Positions 104-41,000 of a DNA stretch of 42,368 nucleotides are shown here, piece after piece; positions within the stretch are counted from its first letter, which is position 1; each line of letters begins with the position of its first letter. Source of the stretch: a virus (taxonomy: Duplodnaviria; Heunggongvirae; Uroviricota; Caudoviricetes); IMG/VR virus record IMGVR_UViG_2737471817_000007, positions 1 through 42,368 of that record. One strand, written 5' to 3'. Made by a program: the position numbers and the translations under genes. A model generated the notes under the pieces. The model did no database searches and was not told the DNA's origin. It was given only the letters and a program-made list of their open reading frames with translations.

Positions 104-170
104 ATGGGGTAACTCTTTGATTTTAATGGTGCGATAATAGGAGTCGAACCTACGACCTTCGCATTACGAA
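104..170. repeat. attL: partial copy of the tRNA-Thr 3' end plus about 20 bp of adjacent sequence
   Basis: 127-170 (tggtgcgataataggagtcgaacctacgaccttcgcattacgaa) matches 40925-40969 with one 1-nt deletion; weaker similarity continues over 104-126 versus 40903-40924. Confidence 0.75.
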
Positions 171-672
171 TTATAAGAATCCGCTTCTAATTCAAAGCAT
201 TACCCCATCAACACTGCGCTCACACGTCCCACCAAATCAAAACATGTAAAGCCTTGCAAGCCATTGCGAGGCCTTATGTGTCTCAGTTTTGTCCCACCTT
301 GTATTACGACTTGCATAGCCAATGAAGATAAACGTGACGACAAACGGCGCAGCGGTCTTCTTTTCCTTTATACTTTCCCCACCCAGCATGCATACCTTCT
401 ACCATAACTGTAGTGAATGTCTGTTATGGGCGAAGAGCGGAAAAAGCATACTGAGATCGCCCGGAATATGTCCCATACTTTTGATGAGCTAATTGTGTAC
501 CTCAAGGTGGATGTCGAGGCTTAACCTCGTAGTTATCATCTGCGCGTACCTTTTCAAACAGTTTGTTATCGCTAGCAAATAACATCTAAGGCTTCAGGGC
601 CAATAGATAGATATTGACTAAGCTAAATAGTTTGATTACTCTTCGAAAATTGATTAAATAAATTTTAATTGG

Positions 673-1461
673 ATGGTAAACATGGAAAACAAAAAAAGTT
701 GCGTTTATTGTAAAAGCACAACAAACTTAACTAAAGAACATATTTTCCCTTCAGCAATAATTAAAAGTTTTAATGTTGAACTTTTATCGATGACTGATAA
801 GAGTGACTACCATTTTAAAGGCGATCCAGTTATTGGGGATGTATGCGCTGAGTGTAATAATGGAATACTGTCGCAACTAGATGCTGATTTCGTAACTTGT
901 TTTAAAAATCAGATGCTAACACCTTTAAAACCCGGAAATGAAATAACATTTGAATATGAATATGATTTATTATTACGTGAACTTCTAAAGATATCATATA
1001 ATTCAGCGAGGGCATCAAATGGTGGTTATAATGCCAGAGCCATTTTAGAAAAATACATACCATTCATAATCACTGGCAATAAAAACAAAAATGTAGATAG
1101 TATAATTCTTTCCCTTCTAATTGTAACTTCTGCAAATATGGTTAATCTGGAAACTGGTAAACATGAAGAGCCTTTAGAACCATATCTATTAAGAAGCGCA
1201 TCGATTGGTGGTTTAAACCTCAACCCTAACAATTATATTGTTAGGATGGTTGCATTTAATAGCTTTTGGTTTTTTTTGTTAATTCCAAAGAGGCCAGTTA
1301 CATCCAAAGTGAAAAAAGAATTTTGGGATGAATTTAAAAGAAAAAATCATCTGCATGGAGTTTTGTTAAAAAGAAACAACACGTCAATAAAGATCACAAA
1401 AGATAAAACGACATATTTGCATCCTGACTTAATAGAAAAGATGTGGCGAAAAATAAAGTAG
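673..1461 (+). CDS. HNH-type nuclease-motif protein (CxxC...EHIFP...CxECN), very AT-rich cargo gene of unknown function
   Basis: 262-aa ORF; N-terminal CVYCKSTTNLTKEHIFP followed by CAECNN resembles HNH/His-Me zinc-finger nucleases; far lower GC than the phage backbone. Confidence 0.55.
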   Translation: MVNMENKKSCVYCKSTTNLTKEHIFPSAIIKSFNVELLSMTDKSDYHFKGDPVIGDVCAECNNGILSQLDADFVTCFKNQMLTPLKPGNEITFEYEYDLLLRELLKISYNSARASNGGYNARAILEKYIPFIITGNKNKNVDSIILSLLIVTSANMVNLETGKHEEPLEPYLLRSASIGGLNLNPNNYIVRMVAFNSFWFFLLIPKRPVTSKVKKEFWDEFKRKNHLHGVLLKRNNTSIKITKDKTTYLHPDLIEKMWRKIK

Positions 1462-1718
1462 AACAAATTTTCCAGTTGACAATACCAAAAATAATTAATG
1501 GGGACTAGGTTAAATGACGCAGTGGAACAAACTCACCAGAGAAGAAAATTAATGGTATTAATGTTCAATGTGTTCATTACTGTAACCTAGCCCCTACTAA
1601 TTTATTCACTATATTGCTGAGTATGTCCGCATCTGGCACATAGCAGTCCTAGAGACAGTGGCGTAAAGTCATGGATGATCGGTGGAAGGAGGCGCTAATC
1701 CTTTCATACAAAAAATAT

Positions 1719-1827
1719 GTAAAATCAATAACGGCTGTAAATCATTCAATACTCGCCCTATCGGAAGTTCACCAGCCAACCGCAGCACGTTCTTGCATAC
1801 GACGTGGCTGCGGTTTCAACTCCCGCC
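1719..1827. repeat. Hairpin element copy A (two predicted stem-loops; conserved loop ttcttgcatacga)
   Basis: About 90% identical to 3491-3602; core hairpin 1780-1813 shared with 4573-4608. Confidence 0.7.
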
Positions 1828-1936: not shown

Positions 1937-1999
1937 TTAAATACTAACCCTTAGCAGCGCACTAAAAATGCCCACGCCTCGTACCCGTAATCATGAGCA

Positions 2000-2104
2000 T
2001 CAAGGACTTTTTTTGATTTCCCACGCACCTTGCGGTAACGGCAGAAAACCCAACGGAACCCTTTGGGCGCCGCTTTTGAAGCAATTGATTTCAAACCCAT
2101 TCAT
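2000..2104 (-). CDS. Small 34-aa ORF (MNGFEINCFKSGAQRVPLGFLPLPQGAWEIKKSP) downstream of ImmA
   Basis: Strong Shine-Dalgarno (aaggaggtg) 5-6 nt upstream of the ATG; lies between the ImmA stop and the 1913-1936 terminator; below the ORF-track size cutoff. Confidence 0.25.
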   Translation of the reverse strand: MNGFEINCFKSGAQRVPLGFLPLPQGAWEIKKSP

Positions 2105-2222
2105 AAAACACCTCCTTACCAAGAGAGATTTTTCCCTTGAACATCTTCCCTGAAGGTGTTAATTTCAGGCTGTCTATCGAAGCTGTTCACGGTGGTGATG
2201 CCTCTTGGATTCATCACCTAAA

Positions 2223-2259
2223 GCCCCTTGCACTGGTTGGCGCCAAGCAAGGGGTTTTT
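2223..2259. terminator. GC-rich hairpin with T-run at the ImmA 3' end (terminator-like, better formed on the plus strand)
   Basis: gccccttgc ... gcaagggg stem followed by ttttt. Confidence 0.35.
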
Positions 2260-2779
2260 ACATTTTGTCTAGCTGATAACGCGCTGCCACTAATGAAACT
2301 CCGCATGCCTCAGCAACATCCTCAGCCGTCATACCTTTTAAAATACTGGCATGCATAGCTGGCACTAATAACTCACCACTAAAACATTTAGCTTGCCATT
2401 CACTACTCTCAAAAGGGCGGATTTTTACCCCTGGGGCAGAACGAGCAAATGCGATGTTCCTGTGCATAAGAAGATGACCCAGTTCATGCGCGGCAGTCAT
2501 CCTATCTCGCCCTACCCCATTCAAAGCGCCTTCGTAAATGTCTTCGCGCAGAATCAATAAATGTTCCTGTGGGTATGTAAGACCATGCGTCTCTCCCATT
2601 TCTTTCATACCACCAATGTGGAACTCAAAATCCGGGATCAACTGAGGCAATGCGAACTCAATTACCTCCATTACAGGGAATTTAAGCCCAGTAATACCAA
2701 ATGCGCTCCGCAGAGATCTGACGATAGAACGTATTGATTCACGATTCTGCGGAGGTACACGATAATCTTGTCCGCTCAA
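2258..2779 (-). CDS. ImmA/IrrE-family zinc metallopeptidase (COG2856-like)
   Basis: 173 aa with HELGH zinc-binding motif; immediately downstream of an XRE HTH gene in the same operon. Confidence 0.7.
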   Translation of the reverse strand: MSGQDYRVPPQNRESIRSIVRSLRSAFGITGLKFPVMEVIEFALPQLIPDFEFHIGGMKEMGETHGLTYPQEHLLILREDIYEGALNGVGRDRMTAAHELGHLLMHRNIAFARSAPGVKIRPFESSEWQAKCFSGELLVPAMHASILKGMTAEDVAEACGVSLVAARYQLDKM

Positions 2780-2787
2780 GCCGCCTC

Positions 2788-3147
2788 CTACTGCTGTTTT
2801 CGATTCAAAATCTGTCGTAAATTACGGAAGTCTTCTTCATTTAACTCATCAAAACTACGAGCGAACGCAATTGCGACTTCACGAGCGTGGCCATTCTTAC
2901 CTGACAAGCTGATCTCTACTGACTGCTGAGAGTCACGAGCTGCACTGATAAGCTTTTCTTTTTGTTTTTCATCCGCATTAAAATAGCTAATGATGCTATC
3001 AAGCACGGGCTTAGTGACCGCCCTTTTACCAGTTTCGATCGCTGAAAGATAAGACGAGGTCATACCCATAGCCTCAGCCATGCTTTTAAGCGTAAGCCCC
3101 AAGTCTATGCGCATTTTTCTTACTGTCTTACCAAACGGCGTTAACAT
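2788..3147 (-). CDS. XRE-family helix-turn-helix transcriptional regulator
   Basis: 119 aa; LTLKSMAEAMGMTSSYLSAIETGKR is a typical XRE HTH. Confidence 0.7.
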   Translation of the reverse strand: MLTPFGKTVRKMRIDLGLTLKSMAEAMGMTSSYLSAIETGKRAVTKPVLDSIISYFNADEKQKEKLISAARDSQQSVEISLSGKNGHAREVAIAFARSFDELNEEDFRNLRQILNRKQQ

Positions 3148-3483: not shown

Positions 3484-3490
3484 TTAATAC

Positions 3491-3602
3491 GTAAAATCGA
3501 TAACGGCTGGAAATCATTCAATACTCGCACTATCGGAAGTTCACCAGCCAGTCGTAGCACGTTCTTGCATACGACGTGGCTACGGGTTTCGAGACCGACC
3601 CG
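3491..3602. repeat. Hairpin element copy B
   Basis: About 90% identical to copy A; hairpin 3553-3585 has a compensatory stem change (C-G to T-A) relative to A. Confidence 0.7.
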
Positions 3603-3680: not shown

Positions 3681-4550
<870 letters not shown>

Positions 4551-4570: not shown

Positions 4571-4628
4571 AACCGCAGCACGATCTTCTTGCATACGACG
4601 TGCTACGGTTTCATTTATCTCCGACCGG
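4571..4628. repeat. Hairpin element copy C (core only), overlapping the 3' end of the invertase gene
   Basis: ccgcagcacg-atcttcttgcatacga-cgtgctacgg; left arm is A-type, right arm is B-type. Confidence 0.6.
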
Positions 4629-5165
4629 AAACTTCTTATACAGTGTCGATATACCAACATCATAGATGATCGCCACCTTCTGGCGAGGAACGCCTGATGC
4701 AATTAATCGTCCGGCCTGCTCCCATTGTTCTGGTGTAAGTTTGGGGCGACGTCCACCAATTCGTCCCTGTGCGCGAGCTGCTTCCAGTCCAGCTTTTGTT
4801 CGTTCAACAATCAGTTCACGCTCCATTTCAGCCAGGGCACCCATCACATGAAAGAAAAAGCGCCCCATTGGGGTACTGGTATCAATTGAATCCGTCAGAC
4901 TACGAAAGTTGATGCCTCGTTCGCGCAACTCCTCCACCAGCACGACAAGATGCCGCATACTGCGCCCCAGTCGGTCCAGTTTCCAGACCACCAGCGTGTC
5001 ACCTGCCGATAATGTCCTGAGCAGCTTTTTCAGTCCTGGTCTGTCGGACTTTGTACCGCTTATCTTGTCTTCAAAAATCAGCTTACATCCTGCACAGTTC
5101 AGCGCATTACGTTGTAGATCGGTATTCTGGTCATTTGTTGATACACGTACATAGCCAATAAGCAT
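4611..5165 (-). CDS. Serine recombinase / DNA invertase (Gin/Hin/Pin/Cin family)
   Basis: MLIGYVRVSTNDQNTDLQ N-terminus typical of resolvase/invertase catalytic domains; adjacent to oppositely oriented tail-fibre cassettes; the ORF track begins 12 codons earlier at 5201. Confidence 0.8.
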   Translation of the reverse strand: MLIGYVRVSTNDQNTDLQRNALNCAGCKLIFEDKISGTKSDRPGLKKLLRTLSAGDTLVVWKLDRLGRSMRHLVVLVEELRERGINFRSLTDSIDTSTPMGRFFFHVMGALAEMERELIVERTKAGLEAARAQGRIGGRRPKLTPEQWEQAGRLIASGVPRQKVAIIYDVGISTLYKKFPVGDK

Positions 5166-5166
5166 G

Positions 5167-5194
5167 TTAAATCCCCCTGGCAAAAGCAGGAATG
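5167..5194. other. Candidate left crossover site of the invertible tail-fibre segment
   Basis: aaATCCccctggcaaaagCAGGAAtg shares a ctggcaaa(a)g core, in inverted orientation, with 6963-6992; both copies encode the peptide LAKA. Confidence 0.4.
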
Positions 5195-5581
5195 ATGCCA
5201 TTTGCTTGTTATTTCTTCATTTTCATAAACATTGGTTTGGGAGAATTATCTCTGGCTGGCACTGCATCGGGTGTCATTGGCCTGAATGGGTATGTAACGA
5301 TCCCGTTAATTATTTCAGGTTCCCGGAGAACACTGATTATTCAGTGGGGGCAGGCGAGATTTGGTGGGTCTGGTGGTGAAGATGCCGGATATCTTAACGA
5401 TTTTCCTTTTGCCTTTCCGTCAGCATGTTATGGAATGATAGTTAGTCATGTGGGGCATACACCTTCAGGCGCAGGAATCTTGTCGGCTTCTGCAATTACA
5501 TCAAATCAGTTCCGCGGTTTTTCAAGCATAGCGACTGCTGCAAACGCTGTATTAGGTCGTTATATCGCTATAGGGGTGTAA
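5192..5581 (+). CDS. Alternative tail-fibre C-terminal (receptor-binding) segment, currently in the silent orientation
   Basis: 129-aa ORF opposite to the expressed fibre; same length as the fibre C-terminal part after the LAKA junction; contains an IIQWG motif of the kind seen in side-tail-fibre C-termini. Confidence 0.45.
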   Translation: MMPFACYFFIFINIGLGELSLAGTASGVIGLNGYVTIPLIISGSRRTLIIQWGQARFGGSGGEDAGYLNDFPFAFPSACYGMIVSHVGHTPSGAGILSASAITSNQFRGFSSIATAANAVLGRYIAIGV

Positions 5582-5582
5582 T

Positions 5583-6019
5583 ATGTTTTATAGTCCATCT
5601 TTAAACATTTTTGTGAATCCTGCACTTAAGGATGATTACATTAATGCAAATTCATGGCCAGATGATGCTCTGGCTGTCAGTGATGATGTTTATAATGAAT
5701 TTGCAATCAATACGCCTCCAGATGACAAAATTCGTGTTGCAGGAAAAAATGGATTACCCACATGGCACTAATACCTCCACCATCACATGAAGAACTTATT
5801 CAACAGGCAGAATCAGAAAGGCAATTATTGCTTAATCAGGCCAACGAATACATGAACAGTAAGCAATGGCCCGGTAAAGCCGCTATTGGTCGTCTGAAAG
5901 GTGATGAACTGGCGCAATATAATTTGTGGCTGGATTATCTGGACGCACTGGAGCTGATCGATACTTCCGGTGCGCCAGATATTGAATGGCCTACGCCTCC
6001 GGCAGTTCAGGCCAGATGA
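5583..6019 (+). CDS. Alternative tail-fibre assembly protein (Tfa'), apparently split into two frames near 5762-5771
   Basis: ORFs 5583-5771 and 5762-6019; the second ends with the Tfa signature DTSGAPDIEWP. Confidence 0.4.
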
Positions 6020-6593
6020 CATCCGGCGCTGTGCTGGTATCTGTTGCCGTCACCGCGTCAATGTAATCCAGCACAGCGTTAAGGCGGGTTGTTTCTGCCT
6101 GCGTCAGTTTACGTCCGGCCTGCAATTTCAGTTGAATCAGACTGATGGAAGCCATTGCTGCATCAATCAGTGACTGGCGCTGTGCTTCTGCCGCTTCTAC
6201 TGCGGCACAGTGTTGTGCCTCAGTGTCGGTCACCCATTTCTCACCATCCCATTTATCATATGGCGTTAACGGGGCGATAGTGGTTGTATTTTCTGGATAG
6301 TCGCCTGGTGCTGTGATTTCTTTGGCATCTCCCGTTTCGGTGTTATAGACGATTTCACCGCGATGGTCTGGCACATATTCCCATGAGTTAAAATCTGCAG
6401 AACGGCAGATTGCATAACCAGCTTTGTATGCGCCTGGAGCATCTAAACAGGAACATGCCGGAATACCGACACCCACAGCAAGATATTCAGTTGATGTGAA
6501 AATATATTCCCGTGTTTCACCATCATAGTTATAAACAGTAATATTTCCTGCCTGAGTGGCGATAAATTCGTTATTTAATACGGCGTAATCCAT
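5991..6593 (-). CDS. Tail-fibre assembly protein (Tfa / Mu U-like)
   Basis: 200 aa; C-terminal DTSTAPDVIWPELP motif; directly downstream of the fibre gene. Confidence 0.7.
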   Translation of the reverse strand: MDYAVLNNEFIATQAGNITVYNYDGETREYIFTSTEYLAVGVGIPACSCLDAPGAYKAGYAICRSADFNSWEYVPDHRGEIVYNTETGDAKEITAPGDYPENTTTIAPLTPYDKWDGEKWVTDTEAQHCAAVEAAEAQRQSLIDAAMASISLIQLKLQAGRKLTQAETTRLNAVLDYIDAVTATDTSTAPDVIWPELPEA

Positions 6594-12504: not shown

Positions 12505-12951
12505 ATGAAGAAATTATTAAAATGGATTTTATATATTTTCATCGGGTTGGTGATTATTGGATATTTTGCAGGCAATAACGATAAAGGCTCTAATTCTTCA
12601 TACTCATCCGATACGGAAGCTGCGGCACCGCAAAAAGAAATCTACAACACTACTGCTCGACAGCTGTTTAAAGAGTATGAAGAAAATGAAGTCGCTACCG
12701 ATGAACAGTTAAAAGGTAAATTAATCGCCGTTAGAGGTATCGTACAATCCATTGATAAGGACTTTACTGACTCTATAATTATTAAATTCAGAACTGAAAA
12801 TGAATTCATGCCAGCAAGAATGGAGATGCAAGACTCTGAAAAATCAACAGCTGCTGCTCTTAAAAAAGGAGAACAAGTAACTGTTATTTGCGAAAAAATG
12901 TCCAGAATTGTCGGCTCCCCATCAGGCCGAAATTGCGTGTTCGCACAGTAA
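12505..12951 (+). CDS. Membrane-anchored small protein with a possible OB-fold-like domain; low-GC moron inside the tail operon
   Basis: 148 aa; N-terminal hydrophobic helix (MKKLLKWILYIFIGLVIIGYFAG); opposite strand to all flanking tail genes; AT-rich. Confidence 0.55.
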   Translation: MKKLLKWILYIFIGLVIIGYFAGNNDKGSNSSYSSDTEAAAPQKEIYNTTARQLFKEYEENEVATDEQLKGKLIAVRGIVQSIDKDFTDSIIIKFRTENEFMPARMEMQDSEKSTAAALKKGEQVTVICEKMSRIVGSPSGRNCVFAQ

Positions 12952-22545: not shown

Positions 22546-24279
22546 TTAAAGCGAGCGGATCCCGTAGGACTCAATGTGGTCAGACAGCGTGTCTTCTTTC
22601 TCGTACAGCATGGCTCTGCCAACCGCCATAATCAGCGCAACTGCACCATCGATTTTGTTTTCCGCCTGCTCTTTGACGGGCTTCACCACATCATCGTTAC
22701 CCGGAATGGTTTTGCCGACCACGTTGCCGATACACCAGGTCATGATGGGATTGCCATCATGATGAAAGCGCCCCGATTCAATCGCCGCTTCCAGCTCTTT
22801 CATCGGATCGGACATGTTGGTGTAGTTCTGAATGATGGTGACGGGGTTCAGGTCTTCATCAGCAAGGTCATGTGACAGCCCGGTCGCCCCGAAGGGGTCG
22901 ATGGGTGACTCACTGACCGGGCTGATTTTGTTCGCCGCTTTGGCCTCTTCGAGGATGTAGCGATAATCCACCTCCGCACCATCGGTAACGGTCAGAACGC
23001 CCATTTCCACCCATTTCTGAAAGCGTTCGGCTGTCCGGCGATCTTCATTTTTCTCGACGCTGTACACCGTGTCATACGGTACCCAGAAACGCGGGGCCAC
23101 ACTGTAGTAATGCGTTTTACCGTCAATCTCGCGGGTATAAAGTCGCGCCATGCTGTTCATATCCAGCTTACGCGCCAGGTCAAAGGCCAGAATGCACGGC
23201 TGCCCCTCGAACTGCTCAAGGGTCAGTGATTTATCCTCGCAGCTCTGCCAGCTCACCAGGTTGAAATACGCCGAACGCGCCGACACCCAGATATTGAGGT
23301 GTTTTGTTTTAAAGACGTTTGCCAGACGGGCGTTATTTTTCGCACGCTGCTGCTGACTTAACAAAAATTCGCGATAAACCGACACGCCAATATTTGGATT
23401 GGCTTTTTCCAGCACCTGCGGGTCGGTCCAGTCGTCACCTTCATCAACGGTATAGATGATCCCGAACAGTTCATCGTTTGGCACCGAGCCGTTGAGCATC
23501 TCGATGACTTCCCGCCGTTTGTCGTAGCACGGCCCCTCAATGTTGTACCCGGCGGTGGTAATGGCCCACATCAGTGGCTGGCGTCGCGCCCCCATCCCGG
23601 TAAGCATCGTGGTGTAAAGCGCATCTGTGGCGTGCTCGTGATATTCATCCACCACGGCACAGTGGGGTGATGAACCATCACCGGGGTTACCGATCAGCGG
23701 TTCAAACCGCGCACCATCCTCCGGACGGTTCATGTTTGAGGCGTTAACCTCAATCCCGAACGCTTCCGTCAGCATGGGTGTGCGTTTACACATCAGTCGT
23801 GCCGGACGAAAGACTTCCCACGCCTGTTTCTCCGTCGTGGCACCGGAATACACTTCCGCGCCGAACTCGTTATCACAGGCAAAACAATACAGGGCAACAC
23901 CGGCAGAGATTGCCGATTTGCCGTTCTTACGGGGAATTTCGGTATACACCTCCCGGAAGCGGCGCAACCGGGTGCCTTTATTGACCCAGCCAAACGCACA
24001 GCAGATCACAAATAGCTGCCACGGCTCCAGCGTGATGGGCATCCGTTTAAATGCCCACTCACCCTTGGTGTGCGGCAACAGCTGAATAAATTTGGCGGCC
24101 CGTTCAGCCAGGTCCTTGTCGAAGCGGTAACGAAACGACTTACTTTTTTCCGCCATCAGGTCATCAAGATGGCGCTGGCAGGCCTGAATCACAAACTGGC
24201 AGGCAATAATCTTTCCGCGCACGACATCCCGGGCATACTGATTTGCAGCATTTACGTTGGGGTAAGATTTCCGGCTCAT
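22546..24279 (-). CDS. Terminase large subunit
   Basis: 577 aa in the expected position downstream of the small terminase subunit and upstream of portal. Confidence 0.8.
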
Positions 24280-24896: not shown

Positions 24897-25253
24897 TCAC
24901 TTGAGCCGCTCACGCGCGGTCTTCGCTGCGTGACACGACCAGCACAGGCTTTCAAGGTTGCTGTCTTCATCAGTACCGCCGTGGGCCTTCGCCTTGATGT
25001 GGTCCACGCAGGACGCCTGCTTCACTATCGCCTGCCGTAGATGGTTCTGACACAGCCCTTTGTCGCGCTTAAGTATCCGCTCCCGGATGACTTCCCACTT
25101 TGTTCCGTATCCTCGCTGCTGCCGTGATTGACCAGGCTTGTAGGACTTCCAGCCTTCACCTTTGTGATTTTCACAGTAGCCAGATGGGTCTGTTGTGGTG
25201 TTGCGACAGCCGCGAACACGGCAAGCCTTTGGTGTGCGCGGTGGCATATTCAC
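24897..25253 (-). CDS. HNH endonuclease (packaging-associated)
   Basis: 118 aa with CxxC ... VDHIKAKAHGG ... N ... CWSCH motif, just upstream of the terminase genes. Confidence 0.75.
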   Translation of the reverse strand: MNMPPRTPKACRVRGCRNTTTDPSGYCENHKGEGWKSYKPGQSRQQRGYGTKWEVIRERILKRDKGLCQNHLRQAIVKQASCVDHIKAKAHGGTDEDSNLESLCWSCHAAKTARERLK

Positions 25254-25310: not shown

Positions 25311-25514
25311 CTAATCGTCGAGTTGCAATACACCGTGCTCAAGTGACTCTGAGTAAGCGATCAGCCCTGTGTATTCAGGGATAATCTCGCCATCATCCGC
25401 TTCGAATTCCGGGATTGTACCAGTGGTGATGGTGTATTGGGGCTGACCATCTTCTTTCGCGAATGCTGCTAGGTCTTCAATCTGCTTAGCTGTAAGAACT
25501 ACTGTCATGCTCAT
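25311..25514 (-). CDS. Hypothetical acidic small protein
   Basis: 67-aa ORF with GAGG Shine-Dalgarno. Confidence 0.35.
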   Translation of the reverse strand: MSMTVVLTAKQIEDLAAFAKEDGQPQYTITTGTIPEFEADDGEIIPEYTGLIAYSESLEHGVLQLDD

Positions 25515-25532
25515 ACCTCAGTTGTTAAAAAG

Positions 25533-25557
25533 CCCCGCTATTGCGAGGCTATGATTG
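25533..25557 (-). terminator. Intrinsic terminator after the 25573-25848 membrane-protein gene
   Basis: agcctcgcaatagcggggct hairpin followed by UUUUU on the minus strand. Confidence 0.4.
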
Positions 25558-25572
25558 ACTAAAGTGATGCTG

Positions 25573-25848
25573 TCAGGTGTGGGTCCAAATGAATTTAACA
25601 ATCCCAATAATGCTAGCCAGAACGCCAAAACCAAAAATAAATTGACCACATACCCCTATGATTCCCGATGCAATGGCACCGGCATTTGTCTGAGCATTTT
25701 CGTTTATGCTCGCCCCCACTAGATACATAATCAAACCAACTATGAGAGATGCGATAATCCAATGTTCCACTGCTAATACAATTACAATGCTCAAAATATC
25801 TGCTAAACCATCACTATGACCACTCACTGCATATCCTTGCTTTGACAT
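25573..25848 (-). CDS. Small multi-pass membrane protein (moron candidate)
   Basis: 91 aa with 2-3 predicted transmembrane helices; AT-rich; followed by its own terminator. Confidence 0.45.
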   Translation of the reverse strand: MSKQGYAVSGHSDGLADILSIVIVLAVEHWIIASLIVGLIMYLVGASINENAQTNAGAIASGIIGVCGQFIFGFGVLASIIGIVKFIWTHT

Positions 25849-25914
25849 TTGAAAAATTCATCACTGGATTATAATTGTTTACACCCTTCATAGTCGTTCG
25901 AATATGATAAAAAA

Positions 25915-26451
25915 TCAATTGTGGGGGATAGCGTTATTTGACTCTCTCAACGAGTCGTAAATACGTTCACACGTCATCCCGGCGGTGTAGCGTTCGTCAG
26001 CGATTCCAGCATAACGTTTAGCTTCTGCTGCAATATCTCCGAGCATGTCGGCGAACATTCCGGCGTCGGCGTCGGTTGTTTTGCTTCGGACGGCAGCGGC
26101 AAGATCAGCGGTGTGCTTTGCGGCGTCCAGGCGTGCGGCAAGCTTTGTTGCTTCGGTACGCAACTGGCTAACAGTGGCAGACAGGCCAGCAGCAGTGGCA
26201 GCAGATTTAGCGGCTTGTGCTTGTGCATCTTTTACAGCCTCATCACGGGCAATTATGCGCCCTTGTTCAATCCAGCGTGCGGCAGTCTGCGCGTTCGCTT
26301 CCTGTGAAGATTCCATGCTATTGTGGTCAGCCCACTTCTTTTGCCAGCCCCGCTCACTCCAGATGTTCCCGACAAGAAATGCACCAGCCAACATCAGCAA
26401 AACAATGATTGTTTTCCACCGCGCCTGAACAAAAGCAAAGACCGCTGTCAT
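25915..26451 (-). CDS. Rz-like i-spanin
   Basis: 178 aa; N-terminal transmembrane helix then Ala/Gln-rich coiled coil; follows the endolysin. Confidence 0.65.
25974..26228 (-). CDS. Rz1-like o-spanin lipoprotein embedded in Rz
   Basis: Out-of-frame ORF inside Rz; signal peptide with LLASC lipobox, proline-rich mature part. Confidence 0.55.
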
Positions 26452-27809: not shown

Positions 27810-28406
27810 TTAAGATAAACTTTGATTGATATACTCATGACACCCAAAAATAAAGGCGTTTTGTGCATCAATAAATGACTTTTTTTCTTCCGGAGTAAAA
27901 TACCCTTTTGTAAAACATACTTTTAGCGCTTTTTGAAGATCTGCCGTCAGGGTTATCAACTTACAACCTTCCTCATCAGGCCTTATTAATAGAAGTAATT
28001 TATTTTTACTTATTTCAGCGGCCTTTATTGGAACTTGAATCTCCTCAGGGAAAACACCCTTAGCCAATATATCCATATTCTTATTTCCGACCAGATGCCA
28101 TTGCTCAAATGTGCTGGCCAACATAATTACGTCTGTCACATGCTCAGCGCCAGCAAAACGTATTTGTTGCGCCAATTCTTTATTAGTATTCAAGTGAGCC
28201 TGTAATGTGGCTAAGGCAAAATTTTCTTTGATTGCCCTGTATGCAACCCAACCAGTTATTCCTGCGGCAATAACGCCTGCAAGAGCAGTAATGAGTGTTT
28301 CAAAAGGAAAGGAAGAACTGATTTCAATTGGCGGTAATTTTTCTATTACCAAGGTCAACTCGCCAGTAGTTTTTTCGAAAGCGTACGGTACGTTTTGCCA
28401 AGTCAT
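27810..28406 (-). CDS. Low-GC moron protein of unknown function with one internal hydrophobic helix, between Q and the lysis cassette
   Basis: 198 aa; AGGAGG Shine-Dalgarno; terminators on both sides; AT-rich relative to backbone. Confidence 0.6.
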   Translation of the reverse strand: MTWQNVPYAFEKTTGELTLVIEKLPPIEISSSFPFETLITALAGVIAAGITGWVAYRAIKENFALATLQAHLNTNKELAQQIRFAGAEHVTDVIMLASTFEQWHLVGNKNMDILAKGVFPEEIQVPIKAAEISKNKLLLLIRPDEEGCKLITLTADLQKALKVCFTKGYFTPEEKKSFIDAQNAFIFGCHEYINQSLS

Positions 28407-28436
28407 GAAGCCTCCTGAGTTTCAGAGGAATCATAA

Positions 28437-28460
28437 CAAAAAAACCCGCTCAATGGCGGG
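28437..28460 (-). terminator. tR'-like intrinsic terminator just downstream of the Q-like gene
   Basis: cccgc-cattga-gcggg stem followed by U7 on the minus strand. Confidence 0.55.
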
Positions 28461-28512
28461 CTCTTAATGTTGTGTTGCTCAGTTCGCTTTAACGTCCCGA
28501 GCCTACCACAAT

Positions 28513-35864: not shown

Positions 35865-36071
35865 ATGCACAAAACAGAACCCACAATCGTCGCGCCCGGA
35901 TACACAAATGAGGAAATTTACGAGTGGATGGCAAAGAAGCTGGCAGCTATAAACCAGCTTCGTGAAGTGCTGTCTTATCGACAGGAAACAATAGACTCCT
36001 TAAAAAAACTGGATCAGGAAATCACGGTTTTATCACAGGATGTTACTTTAGATATTGTGCAGACAAATTAG
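35865..36071 (+). CDS. Hypothetical first early-left protein (about 68 aa)
   Basis: GAGGAGG Shine-Dalgarno 5 nt before the ATG at 35865; the ORF track starts at 35850. Confidence 0.4.
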   Translation: MHKTEPTIVAPGYTNEEIYEWMAKKLAAINQLREVLSYRQETIDSLKKLDQEITVLSQDVTLDIVQTN

Positions 36072-36477
36072 GATCCCATTCATTTTCGTCAAAATCATCA
36101 AAGTGATGAATTTGTGATCTCCAGTCTCGATAATCTAAAAATTTCTGGGCGGTTACGCTTATTTTATCAAGTGTGAGTTCATCCTGAATTGAAAGAAGAA
36201 GTTCATCAAATTTCATCTCATTAATCTGTTTTGGCATCCAGTGATGCTTCATCAGAATAAGGTGAACCAGAGCCTTTTTCCCATTCAACTGATTATAGGG
36301 AGTGCCGAATTTCTTCCGGTGCTCATGTAAGACAAGGTCCAGAAGAGTAAGTAATGTTGCCCTTGATTCCACTTTGCTTATTTCGACTGATGACACTACC
36401 CCACTGATTTCAATGCCCCGATACTTTCCAACATTTTCACAGTGGGATTTGTACAGCGTGTAGATATTACCGGACAT
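36043..36477 (-). CDS. Low-GC moron protein of unknown function, antisense to the early-left operon
   Basis: 144 aa; AT-rich; own Shine-Dalgarno; direct repeats in its upstream region. Confidence 0.55.
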   Translation of the reverse strand: MSGNIYTLYKSHCENVGKYRGIEISGVVSSVEISKVESRATLLTLLDLVLHEHRKKFGTPYNQLNGKKALVHLILMKHHWMPKQINEMKFDELLLSIQDELTLDKISVTAQKFLDYRDWRSQIHHFDDFDENEWDPNLSAQYLK

Positions 36478-36619
36478 TTCTTTTCCTTTTGCGTTGTTGG
36501 GGATAACCAGATTAACCGAATCCTTGTTGTTGGGGAATAACCAGGTCCACCTCGCCTGATGTGGCTAAAAGCAGGCACATAACAGCTAAGTATTTTTAAC
36601 CAGAGAGAATCCTTAGCGT

Positions 36620-39520: not shown

Positions 39521-39870
39521 TGGAGCCATACAGCCTCACACTCGATGAGGCCTGTCATTTTCTCAAGATATCCAGACCGACTGCCATTAACTGGATACGC
39601 ACAGGGCGTCTTCAGGCAACACGCAAAGATCCCACTAAGAATAAATCTCCTTACCTCACAACACGACAAGCCTGCATTGCGGCTCTTCAGTCTCCGCTGC
39701 ATACTGTCCAGGTGAGCGCGGGTGATGGCATAACAGAGGAAAGAAAATGTCACTCTTCCGCAGAGGTGAAATATGGTACGCCAGTTTCACATTGCCGAAC
39801 GGTAAAAGATTTAAACAGTCTCTTGGAACAAAGGACAAAAGGCAGGCGACAGAACTCCATGACAAGCTAA
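39520..39870 (+). CDS. xis: Excisionase (AlpA/MerR-like HTH)
   Basis: [34 protein letters not shown] immediately upstream of and overlapping int. Confidence 0.55.
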
Positions 39871-40910
39871 AGGCTGAAGCATGGCGGGTCAGCAAACTTG
39901 GTGAAATACCTGATATAACGTTCGAGGAAGCGTGTGTCAGGTGGCTTGAAGAGAAAGCACATAAAAAATCACTGGACGATGACAAAAGCCGGATCGGATT
40001 CTGGCTTCAACATTTCGCAGGAATGCAACTAAGAGACATTACTGAATCAAAAATTTATTCAGCAATGCAGAAAATGACGAACCGGCGTCATGAGGAAAAC
40101 TGGAAACTCAGGGCAGAAGCATGCAGAAAAAAAGGGAAACCTGTTCCAGAATACACGCCAAAACCAGCGTCCGTTGCAACGAAGGCTACGCATCTTTCAT
40201 TTATAAAGGCCCTACTAAGAGCCGCAGAGCGTGAATGGAAAATGCTGGATAAGGCACCAATTATTAAAGTGCCTCAACCAAAGAATAAACGGATCCGCTG
40301 GCTGGAGCCCCATGAAGCACAAAGGCTGATTGATGAATGTCCGGAGCCATTAAAGTCTGTTGTTGAATTTGCACTGGCAACAGGCTTAAGACGCTCGAAC
40401 ATCATCAACCTTGAATGGCAACAAATAGATATGCAGCGCCGGGTGGCATGGATAAACCCGGAAGAGAGTAAATCAAACCGCGCAATTGGCGTTGCGCTGA
40501 ATGATACTGCATGTCGCGTTTTGAAAAAACAAATCGGGAATCATCACCGTTGGGTATTTGTGTACAAGGAAAGCTGTACCAAACCAGACGGAACGAAAGC
40601 GCCAACAGTAAGGAAGATGCGGTATGACGCAAACACAGCCTGGAAAGCGGCGCTGAGACGGGCTGGTATTGATGATTTCAGATTTCACGACTTGAGACAC
40701 ACCTGGGCAAGTTGGCTGGTTCAAGCCGGAGTCCCGTTGTCAGTGTTACAGGAAATGGGAGGCTGGGAGTCTATCGAAATGGTTCGTCGATATGCTCACC
40801 TTGCACCTAATCACCTTACCGAACACGCACGGCAAATAGACTCGATCCTGAACCCATCGGTCCCAAATTCGTCCCAGTCAAAAAATAAGGAAGGTACTAA
40901 TGATGTGTAA
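39747..40910 (+). CDS. int: Tyrosine integrase
   Basis: 387 aa; C-terminal HDLRHT ... VRRYAHL catalytic region; ends 14 bp from the tRNA. Confidence 0.85.
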
Positions 40911-40969
40911 CTTATTGATTTAAATGGTGCCGATAATAGGAGTCGAACCTACGACCTTCGCATTACGAA
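40903..40969. repeat. attR: phage/tRNA junction copy of the attachment repeat
   Basis: Matches 104-170; lies inside the tRNA 3' half. Confidence 0.75.
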
Positions 40970-41000
40970 TGCGCTGCTCTACCAACTGAGCTATATCGGC
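40925..41000 (-). tRNA. thrW: tRNA-Thr (anticodon CGU)
   Basis: Reverse complement reads GCCGATATAGCTCAGTTGGTAGAGCAGCGCATTCGTAATGCGAAGGTCGTAGGTTCGACTCCTATTATCGGCACCA: cloverleaf with CGT anticodon and CCA end. Confidence 0.85.

Follow-up and report, generated by a model that had tools for sequence, protein, structure and literature searches.

Sirona and Nemetona are single-gene integron cassettes of Vibrio cholerae that are related to the His-Me/HNH nucleases, protect against phages experimentally, and occur on mobile elements in other Pseudomonadota as well (bioRxiv 10.1101/2024.07.02.601686). Their described relatives are a type II restriction domain and lambda NinG (PF05766), not HNH_5. 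Divona, a validated Vibrio defense system, is an Mrr-type nuclease fused to a Crr6 domain (bioRxiv 10.1101/2024.07.02.601686). EcoKMcrA (PDB 6ghc), a Type IV HNH enzyme of the Escherichia coli e14 prophage, is a prophage-borne parallel for Type IV-like logic, and PtuB is the HNH partner of the PtuA ATPase in Septu. On the computational side, the DefensePredictor study predicted 1,041 E. coli clusters as uncharacterized defense proteins (Science 2026, PMC13092281, Table S10), and 45% of the predictions that were tested in that study protected (PMC13092281).

Here we describe an HNH gene in the window, by which we mean the whole stretch of 42,368 nucleotides of E. coli prophage DNA that we analyzed. 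Judged from sequence and genomic setting, its product is somewhat more likely than not a self-contained, one-protein anti-phage nuclease carried as prophage cargo in a hotspot for defense cassettes. The gene is an open frame of 262 amino acids at positions 673 to 1461 on the plus strand, counted from the ATG at 673. A second ATG at 682 is the start used by RefSeq and by most homologues and gives a protein of 259 amino acids. This shorter product is identical to WP_000428315.1 (259 amino acids) and differs from WP_086625066.1 by one residue. Both accessions appear in Table S10 of the DefensePredictor study, where WP_000428315.1 is listed as a "Predicted novel defense gene" with a mean log-odds of 8.39 against a cutoff of 4 and WP_086625066.1 is its cluster representative (PMC13092281). 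The sole remote match given there for WP_000428315.1 is the Cas9 HNH domain, over 24% of its length (PMC13092281). The tables of units that were cloned and tested do not include the protein, which is thus predicted, not validated (PMC13092281). We found neither accession in the main text of any paper; they are present only in the DefensePredictor supplement.

A stop-free run of 262 codons would arise by chance with a probability of ~9e-11 at the gene's own base composition. The identity to the Klebsiella, Enterobacter, and Hafnia copies is 0.88 to 0.91 at the first codon position, 0.91 to 0.95 at the second, and 0.69 to 0.85 at the third. This pattern argues for purifying selection, and by this measure the open reading frame is a real gene. 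Its composition deviates from that of the prophage, as the original prediction had stated. We found a GC content of 0.312 and a GC3 of 0.259, compared with a GC content of 0.52 for the prophage body (6000 to 40000) and a GC3 of 0.56 to 0.68 for the structural genes. The interpretation in the original prediction, which read this composition as a mark of recent acquisition, was supported. In each of the 22 loci that we examined, the HNH gene is 7 to 29 GC points poorer than the DNA around it, so low GC is a trait of the family and not merely a sign of recent arrival. A gene this AT-rich may be silenced in E. coli. Our scan for promoters and terminators around the gene did no better than on shuffled sequence and gave no promoter above chance.

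The original prediction also described CxxC, EHIFP, and CxECN elements spaced more widely than in canonical HNH endonucleases. All three are there, as C10-x2-C13, E22-H23-I-F-P26, and C58-A-E-C61-N62, and the spacing is indeed long. H23 and N62 lie 39 residues apart, compared with 23, His to His, in the terminase-associated HNH protein of the same prophage (24897 to 25253; H85...N99...H108). The unusual spacing is due to the insertion of residues 27 to 52, which forms a short helix and an extra beta-hairpin in the predicted model. We modeled the full-length protein with AlphaFold2 and the family alignment and obtained a compact single body (pLDDT, 89.2; pTM, 0.89). In this model, a strand of residues 19 to 23 ends in the acidic residue and histidine of E22-H23, a second strand spans residues 53 to 58, and the helix that follows, residues 59 to 80, carries the asparagine N62. 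This is the beta-beta-alpha arrangement of a His-Me finger, for which a structure prediction had been proposed as the check. The coordinates of these and the other features are collected in Table 1.

Table 1. Features of the HNH gene, its mobile unit, and the prophage ends (positions in the window)
Feature	Position	Strand	Remarks
Partial copy of tRNA-Thr(CGT) 3' end	126..170	-	Distal attachment-site repeat
Mobile unit, ~1.2 kb	419..1639	+	Gene, ~250 nt upstream, and ~180 nt downstream
First Cys pair, C10-x2-C13	700..711	+	Half of predicted structural Cys4 zinc site
E22-H23-I-F-P26, end of beta-1	736..750	+	DSSP strand 19-23
Insertion of ~26 residues (27-52), beta-1 to beta-2	751..828	+	DSSP H27-32, E39-41, E44-48
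D56-V-C58-x2-C61-N62-N63...L66-S67..D70	838..882	+	Beta-2, second Cys pair, start of alpha-helix
C-terminal domain, residues ~86-262 (~175 residues)	928..1458	+	Basic, alpha/beta
Repeat R1, ~100 nt	1714..1816		Bounds HNH cassette; copies at 3486-3588 and, core only, 4571-4610
Cassette	1951..3147	-	HTH CapH-like, 2788-3147; ImmA/IrrE CapP-like, 2258-2779; 49-aa ORF, 1951-2100
PD-T4-3, GIY-YIG single-gene anti-phage system	3726..4550	+	PADLOC E 2.6e-140, full length; Pfam LEM-3_GIY-YIG
Pin/Gin-type DNA invertase	4611..5201	-	Inner edge of hotspot; Resolvase + HTH_7
Alternative fiber C terminus	5192-5581	+	Orientation opposite to invertase
Tail-fiber assembly gene	5991-6593	-	
Integrase	39747-40910		
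Intact tRNA-Thr(CGT)	40925-41000		Other prophage end

The residues of this module are kept across 192 diverse relatives. N62 is present in all 192 sequences, H23 in 191, and E22 in 186, while C10 and C13 are present in 187, the other 5 having gaps there. P26, D56, V57, C58, C61, L66, and D70 are likewise invariant or nearly so. H23 is predicted to act as the general base, and E22 and the helix residue N62 as metal ligands. The counterpart motif in Cas9 is D839-H840-IVP. Together with the brace of C10, C13, C58, and C61, which is predicted to bind zinc, these residues make up a complete HNH catalytic set.

We compared the protein with known families and structures. The N-terminal part showed a resemblance to solved HNH nuclease structures that was selective but at best weak. 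When its profile was aligned by hhalign with the canonical HNH protein of the same prophage, C58, C61, and N62 fell on C, C, and H, in an alignment that was not significant. When the PDB was searched by sequence, whether with the protein itself or with the profile of the family or of the N-terminal part, the only matches were to CxxCH cytochromes, and we rejected them as due to chance. HNH_5 (PF14279) was the sole Pfam family to match, at 23.9 bits (E 4.1e-5) and split in two stretches by the insertion, which is below the curated gathering threshold of 27.5 bits. HNH_5 matches 33 of 35 relatives at an E value of ≤0.01, and the longer relative P0179 reaches 28.2 bits, above the threshold. Given these profile matches, a divergent HNH_5-like domain with an insertion is the best description of the protein. 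Searches with the HNH protein gave no match to any PADLOC or NCBIfam model and, in PHROGs, weak matches to families of unknown function alone. The HNH domains of Cas9 and of phage GVE2 (PDB 5h0o) lack the inserted hairpin and the spacing of 39, and, unlike Cas9, the window protein has no guide RNA or RuvC context.

PtuB has the same CxxC...EH opening of the HNH_5-type motif, and it is the only PADLOC defense model with any similarity to the family. Two family members match it (E 0.008 and 0.09), whereas the window protein does not match even at an E value of ≤10. We found no PtuA-type ATPase conserved beside the family, and the C-terminal domain is unrelated, which sets the family apart from Septu.

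The original prediction recognized nothing in the remainder of the protein, and this stood: residues ~86 to 262 gave no match in Pfam, NCBIfam, PADLOC, or the PDB, and comparisons of the C-terminal domain with Pfam and with the solved structures in the PDB, by sequence and by fold, returned no relative. The protein is one already flagged computationally as a defense candidate, with a C-terminal domain that has no likeness to a solved structure. We also found no modified-base reader domain (SRA, EVE/ASCH, McrA-N, or sulfur-binding) in the C-terminal domain by Pfam or PDB. The domain is well conserved in places. Near-invariant R102, K106, N110, and R113 share one helix (residues 97 to 113), and R174, R191, and F200 are also conserved among the 192 sequences. 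It is strongly basic, with a pI of 9.77 in the window protein and a family median of 9.56, and 89% of members are above 8. We infer that this domain is the part of the protein that contacts nucleic acid and chooses the target.

Eleven family variants of ~430 amino acids (P0160, P0179, P0185, P0198, P0200, P0203, P0208, P0214, P0215, P0224, and P0225) carry an extra C-terminal domain of 160 amino acids with the motif GYDxDxREL..I.EV....L....PYW, which the window protein lacks. This extra domain gave a weak Pfam match to Crr6 in 7 of the 11 (best E, 0.0017). These weak matches suggest that the longer variants combine a nuclease with a Crr6-like domain as Divona does. The Divona nuclease is of another type.

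A search with the single sequence returned 90 full-length relatives of ~255 to 260 amino acids from Enterobacterales, Shewanella, Vibrio, Aeromonas, Alteromonas, and Corallococcus, all annotated as "hypothetical protein" or "HNH endonuclease." When 1.84 billion cluster representatives, clustered at 50% identity, were searched with a profile, 1,208 clusters matched at an E value of ≤1e-3 and 336 at ≤1e-30. The family loci are in Gamma-, Beta-, and Alphaproteobacteria, Bacteroidota, Cyanobacteria, Bacillota, and Myxococcota. Since no V. cholerae protein is among the matches listed from the two homology searches, we tentatively regard Sirona and Nemetona as analogues of the window protein rather than members of its family, set apart by their descriptions.

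The gene travels in a short unit. The same ~1.2 kb is common to Klebsiella, Enterobacter, and Hafnia (87%, 79%, and 81% identity, respectively) in unrelated contexts. Its flanks diverge at about the rate of third codon positions and so look like neutral hitchhiking DNA. We considered a small gene or RNA for the conserved ~250 nt upstream and rejected both: the frames shift and the rate is neutral, which leaves a decayed open reading frame remnant. Positions 419 to 640 (plus strand) are the 3' end of this decayed frame, which is open in the Klebsiella copy L009 (...FGELLVYLKVDVEALPTGYHLHVTFQAVCYRYQITSKAS...) and broken by stops in the window. Rfam matched only the tRNA.

The genomic settings of the gene are diverse. 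In the window and in E. coli AR437 and F467, it occupies the far end of prophages that are inserted at tRNA-Thr. A P2-like prophage of Hafnia carries it between gpS and gpV, next to a DUF4238 protein; in a Morganella prophage it is between the tail-fiber genes and the integrase; and in Enterobacter it ends prophages with Mu-type tails. It is downstream of tniA/B/Q and a resolvase gene on a Citrobacter IncFII plasmid and adjoins a transposase gene in Corallococcus. By comparison of these copies, the HNH gene moves between genomes on its own. The prediction that it stands alone was borne out as well. When we compared all genes up to 6 kb away, all against all, across 29 loci, no neighbor was conserved, and the only one to recur was a serine recombinase, in three loci; nor did we find a conserved partner, immunity gene, or small open reading frame beside the HNH gene.

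Like Sirona and Nemetona, the family has a member that is an integron cassette, in Vibrio parahaemolyticus. In L039, the HNH relative (5688 to 6455) forms a single-gene cassette with repeats at 5537 to 5666 and 6454 to 6588; the repeats on both sides are of the attC type (129 nt). The region from 3500 to 10600 of L039 is a chromosomal integron array in which ten attC-type repeats separate single-gene cassettes, among them Mrr_cat, Phd/ParE, the HNH relative, acetyltransferases, and Shedu (SduA_C). A second V. parahaemolyticus isolate, L040, has a TIR-domain gene after the HNH relative. The window copy is not an integron cassette of this form; its limits are the att copy on one side and repeat R1 on the other.

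The cargo hotspot of the window runs from the invertase (4611) to the att copy (170) and holds three cassettes. PD-T4-3, a validated single-gene defense, resembles the HNH gene in being one AT-rich nuclease gene in a cassette of the same prophage hotspot, but it is of the GIY-YIG superfamily and the two show no homology. Its true start is probably the ATG at 3777, because the match begins at residue 18. The middle cassette has a CapH-like match (E 6e-10) and a CapP-like match (E 6e-11), its 49-amino-acid product has no match, and the operon ends in a strong terminator (1938 to 1919). This operon is transcribed away from PD-T4-3, which it could regulate. The slot beside the HNH gene is taken by AbiLi/AbiLii in E. 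coli AR437 and F467, and F467 has the same layout with pinE. At the inner edge, positions 4611 to 6593 are a typical invertible tail-fiber segment.

Repeat R1 separates the three cargo cassettes and occurs again directly downstream of the invertase gene. At its core is a hairpin, CCGCAGCACG..TTCTTGCATACGACGTGGCTRCGGTTTC, and the BLAST match to E. coli AR437 stops at 1812, at the R1 edge. We found R1 to be a dispersed, unannotated intergenic repeat, present in 5,413 of 5,426 complete E. coli genomes (median, 3 copies; maximum, 10). R1 may be a recombination substrate by which cassettes are stacked and swapped. Elsewhere in the prophage, a 148-amino-acid tRNA_anti-like (OB-fold) gene at 12505 to 12951 (plus strand) sits on the opposite strand within the tail/baseplate block, in a GC dip of 0.39. 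It has the look of a further moron, and no PADLOC model matches it. Other local GC dips are at 25501 to 26000 (0.41), 28001 to 28500 (0.42), and 36001 to 36500 (0.38) and may be acquired genes.

The company of the family in other genomes includes conflict systems. The 103 nearest neighbors, pooled from related loci, include Hachiman HamA/B/C, a CBASS cyclase, a dGTPase, AbiEii, AbiLi, NsnA, ZorD-like proteins, and several PDC candidates. Loci such as those of Shewanella, where housekeeping genes alone flank the HNH gene, count against a role in defense. In Thioalkalivibrio denitrificans (L014, 10001 to 14641), open reading frames of 269 and 992 amino acids come after the HNH relative on the same strand. 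By their size, these are probably the HamA and HamB of the pooled neighbors, which would make a Hachiman system that adjoins the HNH relative.

These contexts fit equally well with a protein that excludes other mobile elements (plasmids, satellites, or transforming DNA) rather than lytic phages, and the HNH gene is itself carried on plasmids and in transposon-like cargo. The neighboring PD-T4-3 and AbiL, however, are anti-phage systems. We consider exclusion of mobile elements unlikely, and the present data do not separate such a target from anti-phage defense.

Many free-standing phage HNH genes are homing endonucleases. The window gene could thus be a selfish, free-standing HNH endonuclease of the homing type, which would spread the 1.2-kb cassette by cutting alleles that lack it. 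Consistently with this, the gene enters unrelated sites with short conserved flanks, and it is AT-rich and sporadic, being present in 14 of 5,426 complete E. coli genomes (all copies with at least 99.8% identity). In contrast, we found no match to it in 50,697 phage genomes and neither a recurrent target gene nor a recurrent insertion context in the 29 loci, so that neither the phage or intron residence nor the target expected of a free-standing homing endonuclease was seen in these two sets. The Vibrio copy, as an integron cassette bounded by attC, owes its movement to the integrase rather than to cleavage of its own. The flanks evolve neutrally, unlike the homology arms of a homing site, and the large conserved basic domain is unlike the DNA-binding modules of homing endonucleases. 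Homing is therefore quite improbable in our judgment.

A nuclease of the prophage life cycle, whether a packaging HNH, a recombination/repair enzyme, or a structure-specific resolvase akin to T4 endonuclease VII or to lambda NinG/Rap, is a still poorer explanation and very unlikely. The packaging role is already filled by the canonical HNH protein beside the terminase, and the HNH gene studied here is ~21 kb from the terminase (22546 to 24279). It lies in the variable cargo region, on the strand opposite the late genes, and has a foreign composition; nearly all related prophages lack it, and integron arrays, plasmids, and chromosomal islets carry relatives that are not in prophages. Toxins often use HNH domains as warheads (colicin E7/E9 class), and the Vibrio relative sits among toxin-antitoxin cassettes, but a toxin (half of a toxin-antitoxin or addiction pair or a bacteriocin-like or contact-dependent nuclease, rather than a phage-sensing defense) is hardly credible for a protein with no conserved adjacent small immunity or antitoxin gene in the 29 loci, with small open reading frames downstream in the window that are not conserved, with no signal peptide, transmembrane segment, or delivery domain that we could find, and with a predicted model that is one compact body. 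The absence from phage genomes, the lack of a recurrent target or immunity gene, the integron form, and the separate packaging HNH weaken the homing, housekeeping, and toxin explanations.

We return to the anti-phage nuclease, the reading that we prefer. According to this model, the basic C-terminal domain would bind nucleic acid and pick the target, and the HNH module would then cut what is bound. Because the gene has no methyltransferase, immunity gene, or ATPase partner, self-DNA must be spared either by recognition or by inactivity. The enzyme might recognize a feature of phage DNA, such as a modification or a replication structure, in a Type IV-like manner. Alternatively, it might be held inactive or autoinhibited until infection. 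We prefer direct recognition of phage DNA over autoinhibition only slightly. As in Type IV systems, the nuclease has no cognate methyltransferase, given that no partner is conserved in the 29 loci.

The C-terminal domain could be an undescribed fold that senses nucleic acid or modified bases and could form, with the split HNH module, a new and widespread class of one-protein nuclease that is restriction-like or triggered by infection. We put this forward tentatively, as a possibility that we hold to be less than even. If it is true, the class would comprise more than 1,200 clusters and would be a minimal cassette in prophage ends, integrons, and transposons.

If validated, the HNH protein would represent a compact single-gene defense family of ~780 bp with a defined catalytic module and a candidate target-selecting domain. 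Single-gene systems of this type are easily dissected, since a point mutation of H23 or N62 provides a clean negative control, and they can reveal ways to tell phage DNA from self that do not require a methyltransferase. The locus also suggests how prophage ends stack interchangeable defense cassettes, with the HNH, CapH/CapP-like, and PD-T4-3 cassettes in series here and AbiL elsewhere. The layout of cassettes separated by a short repeat would offer a practical route to further candidates.
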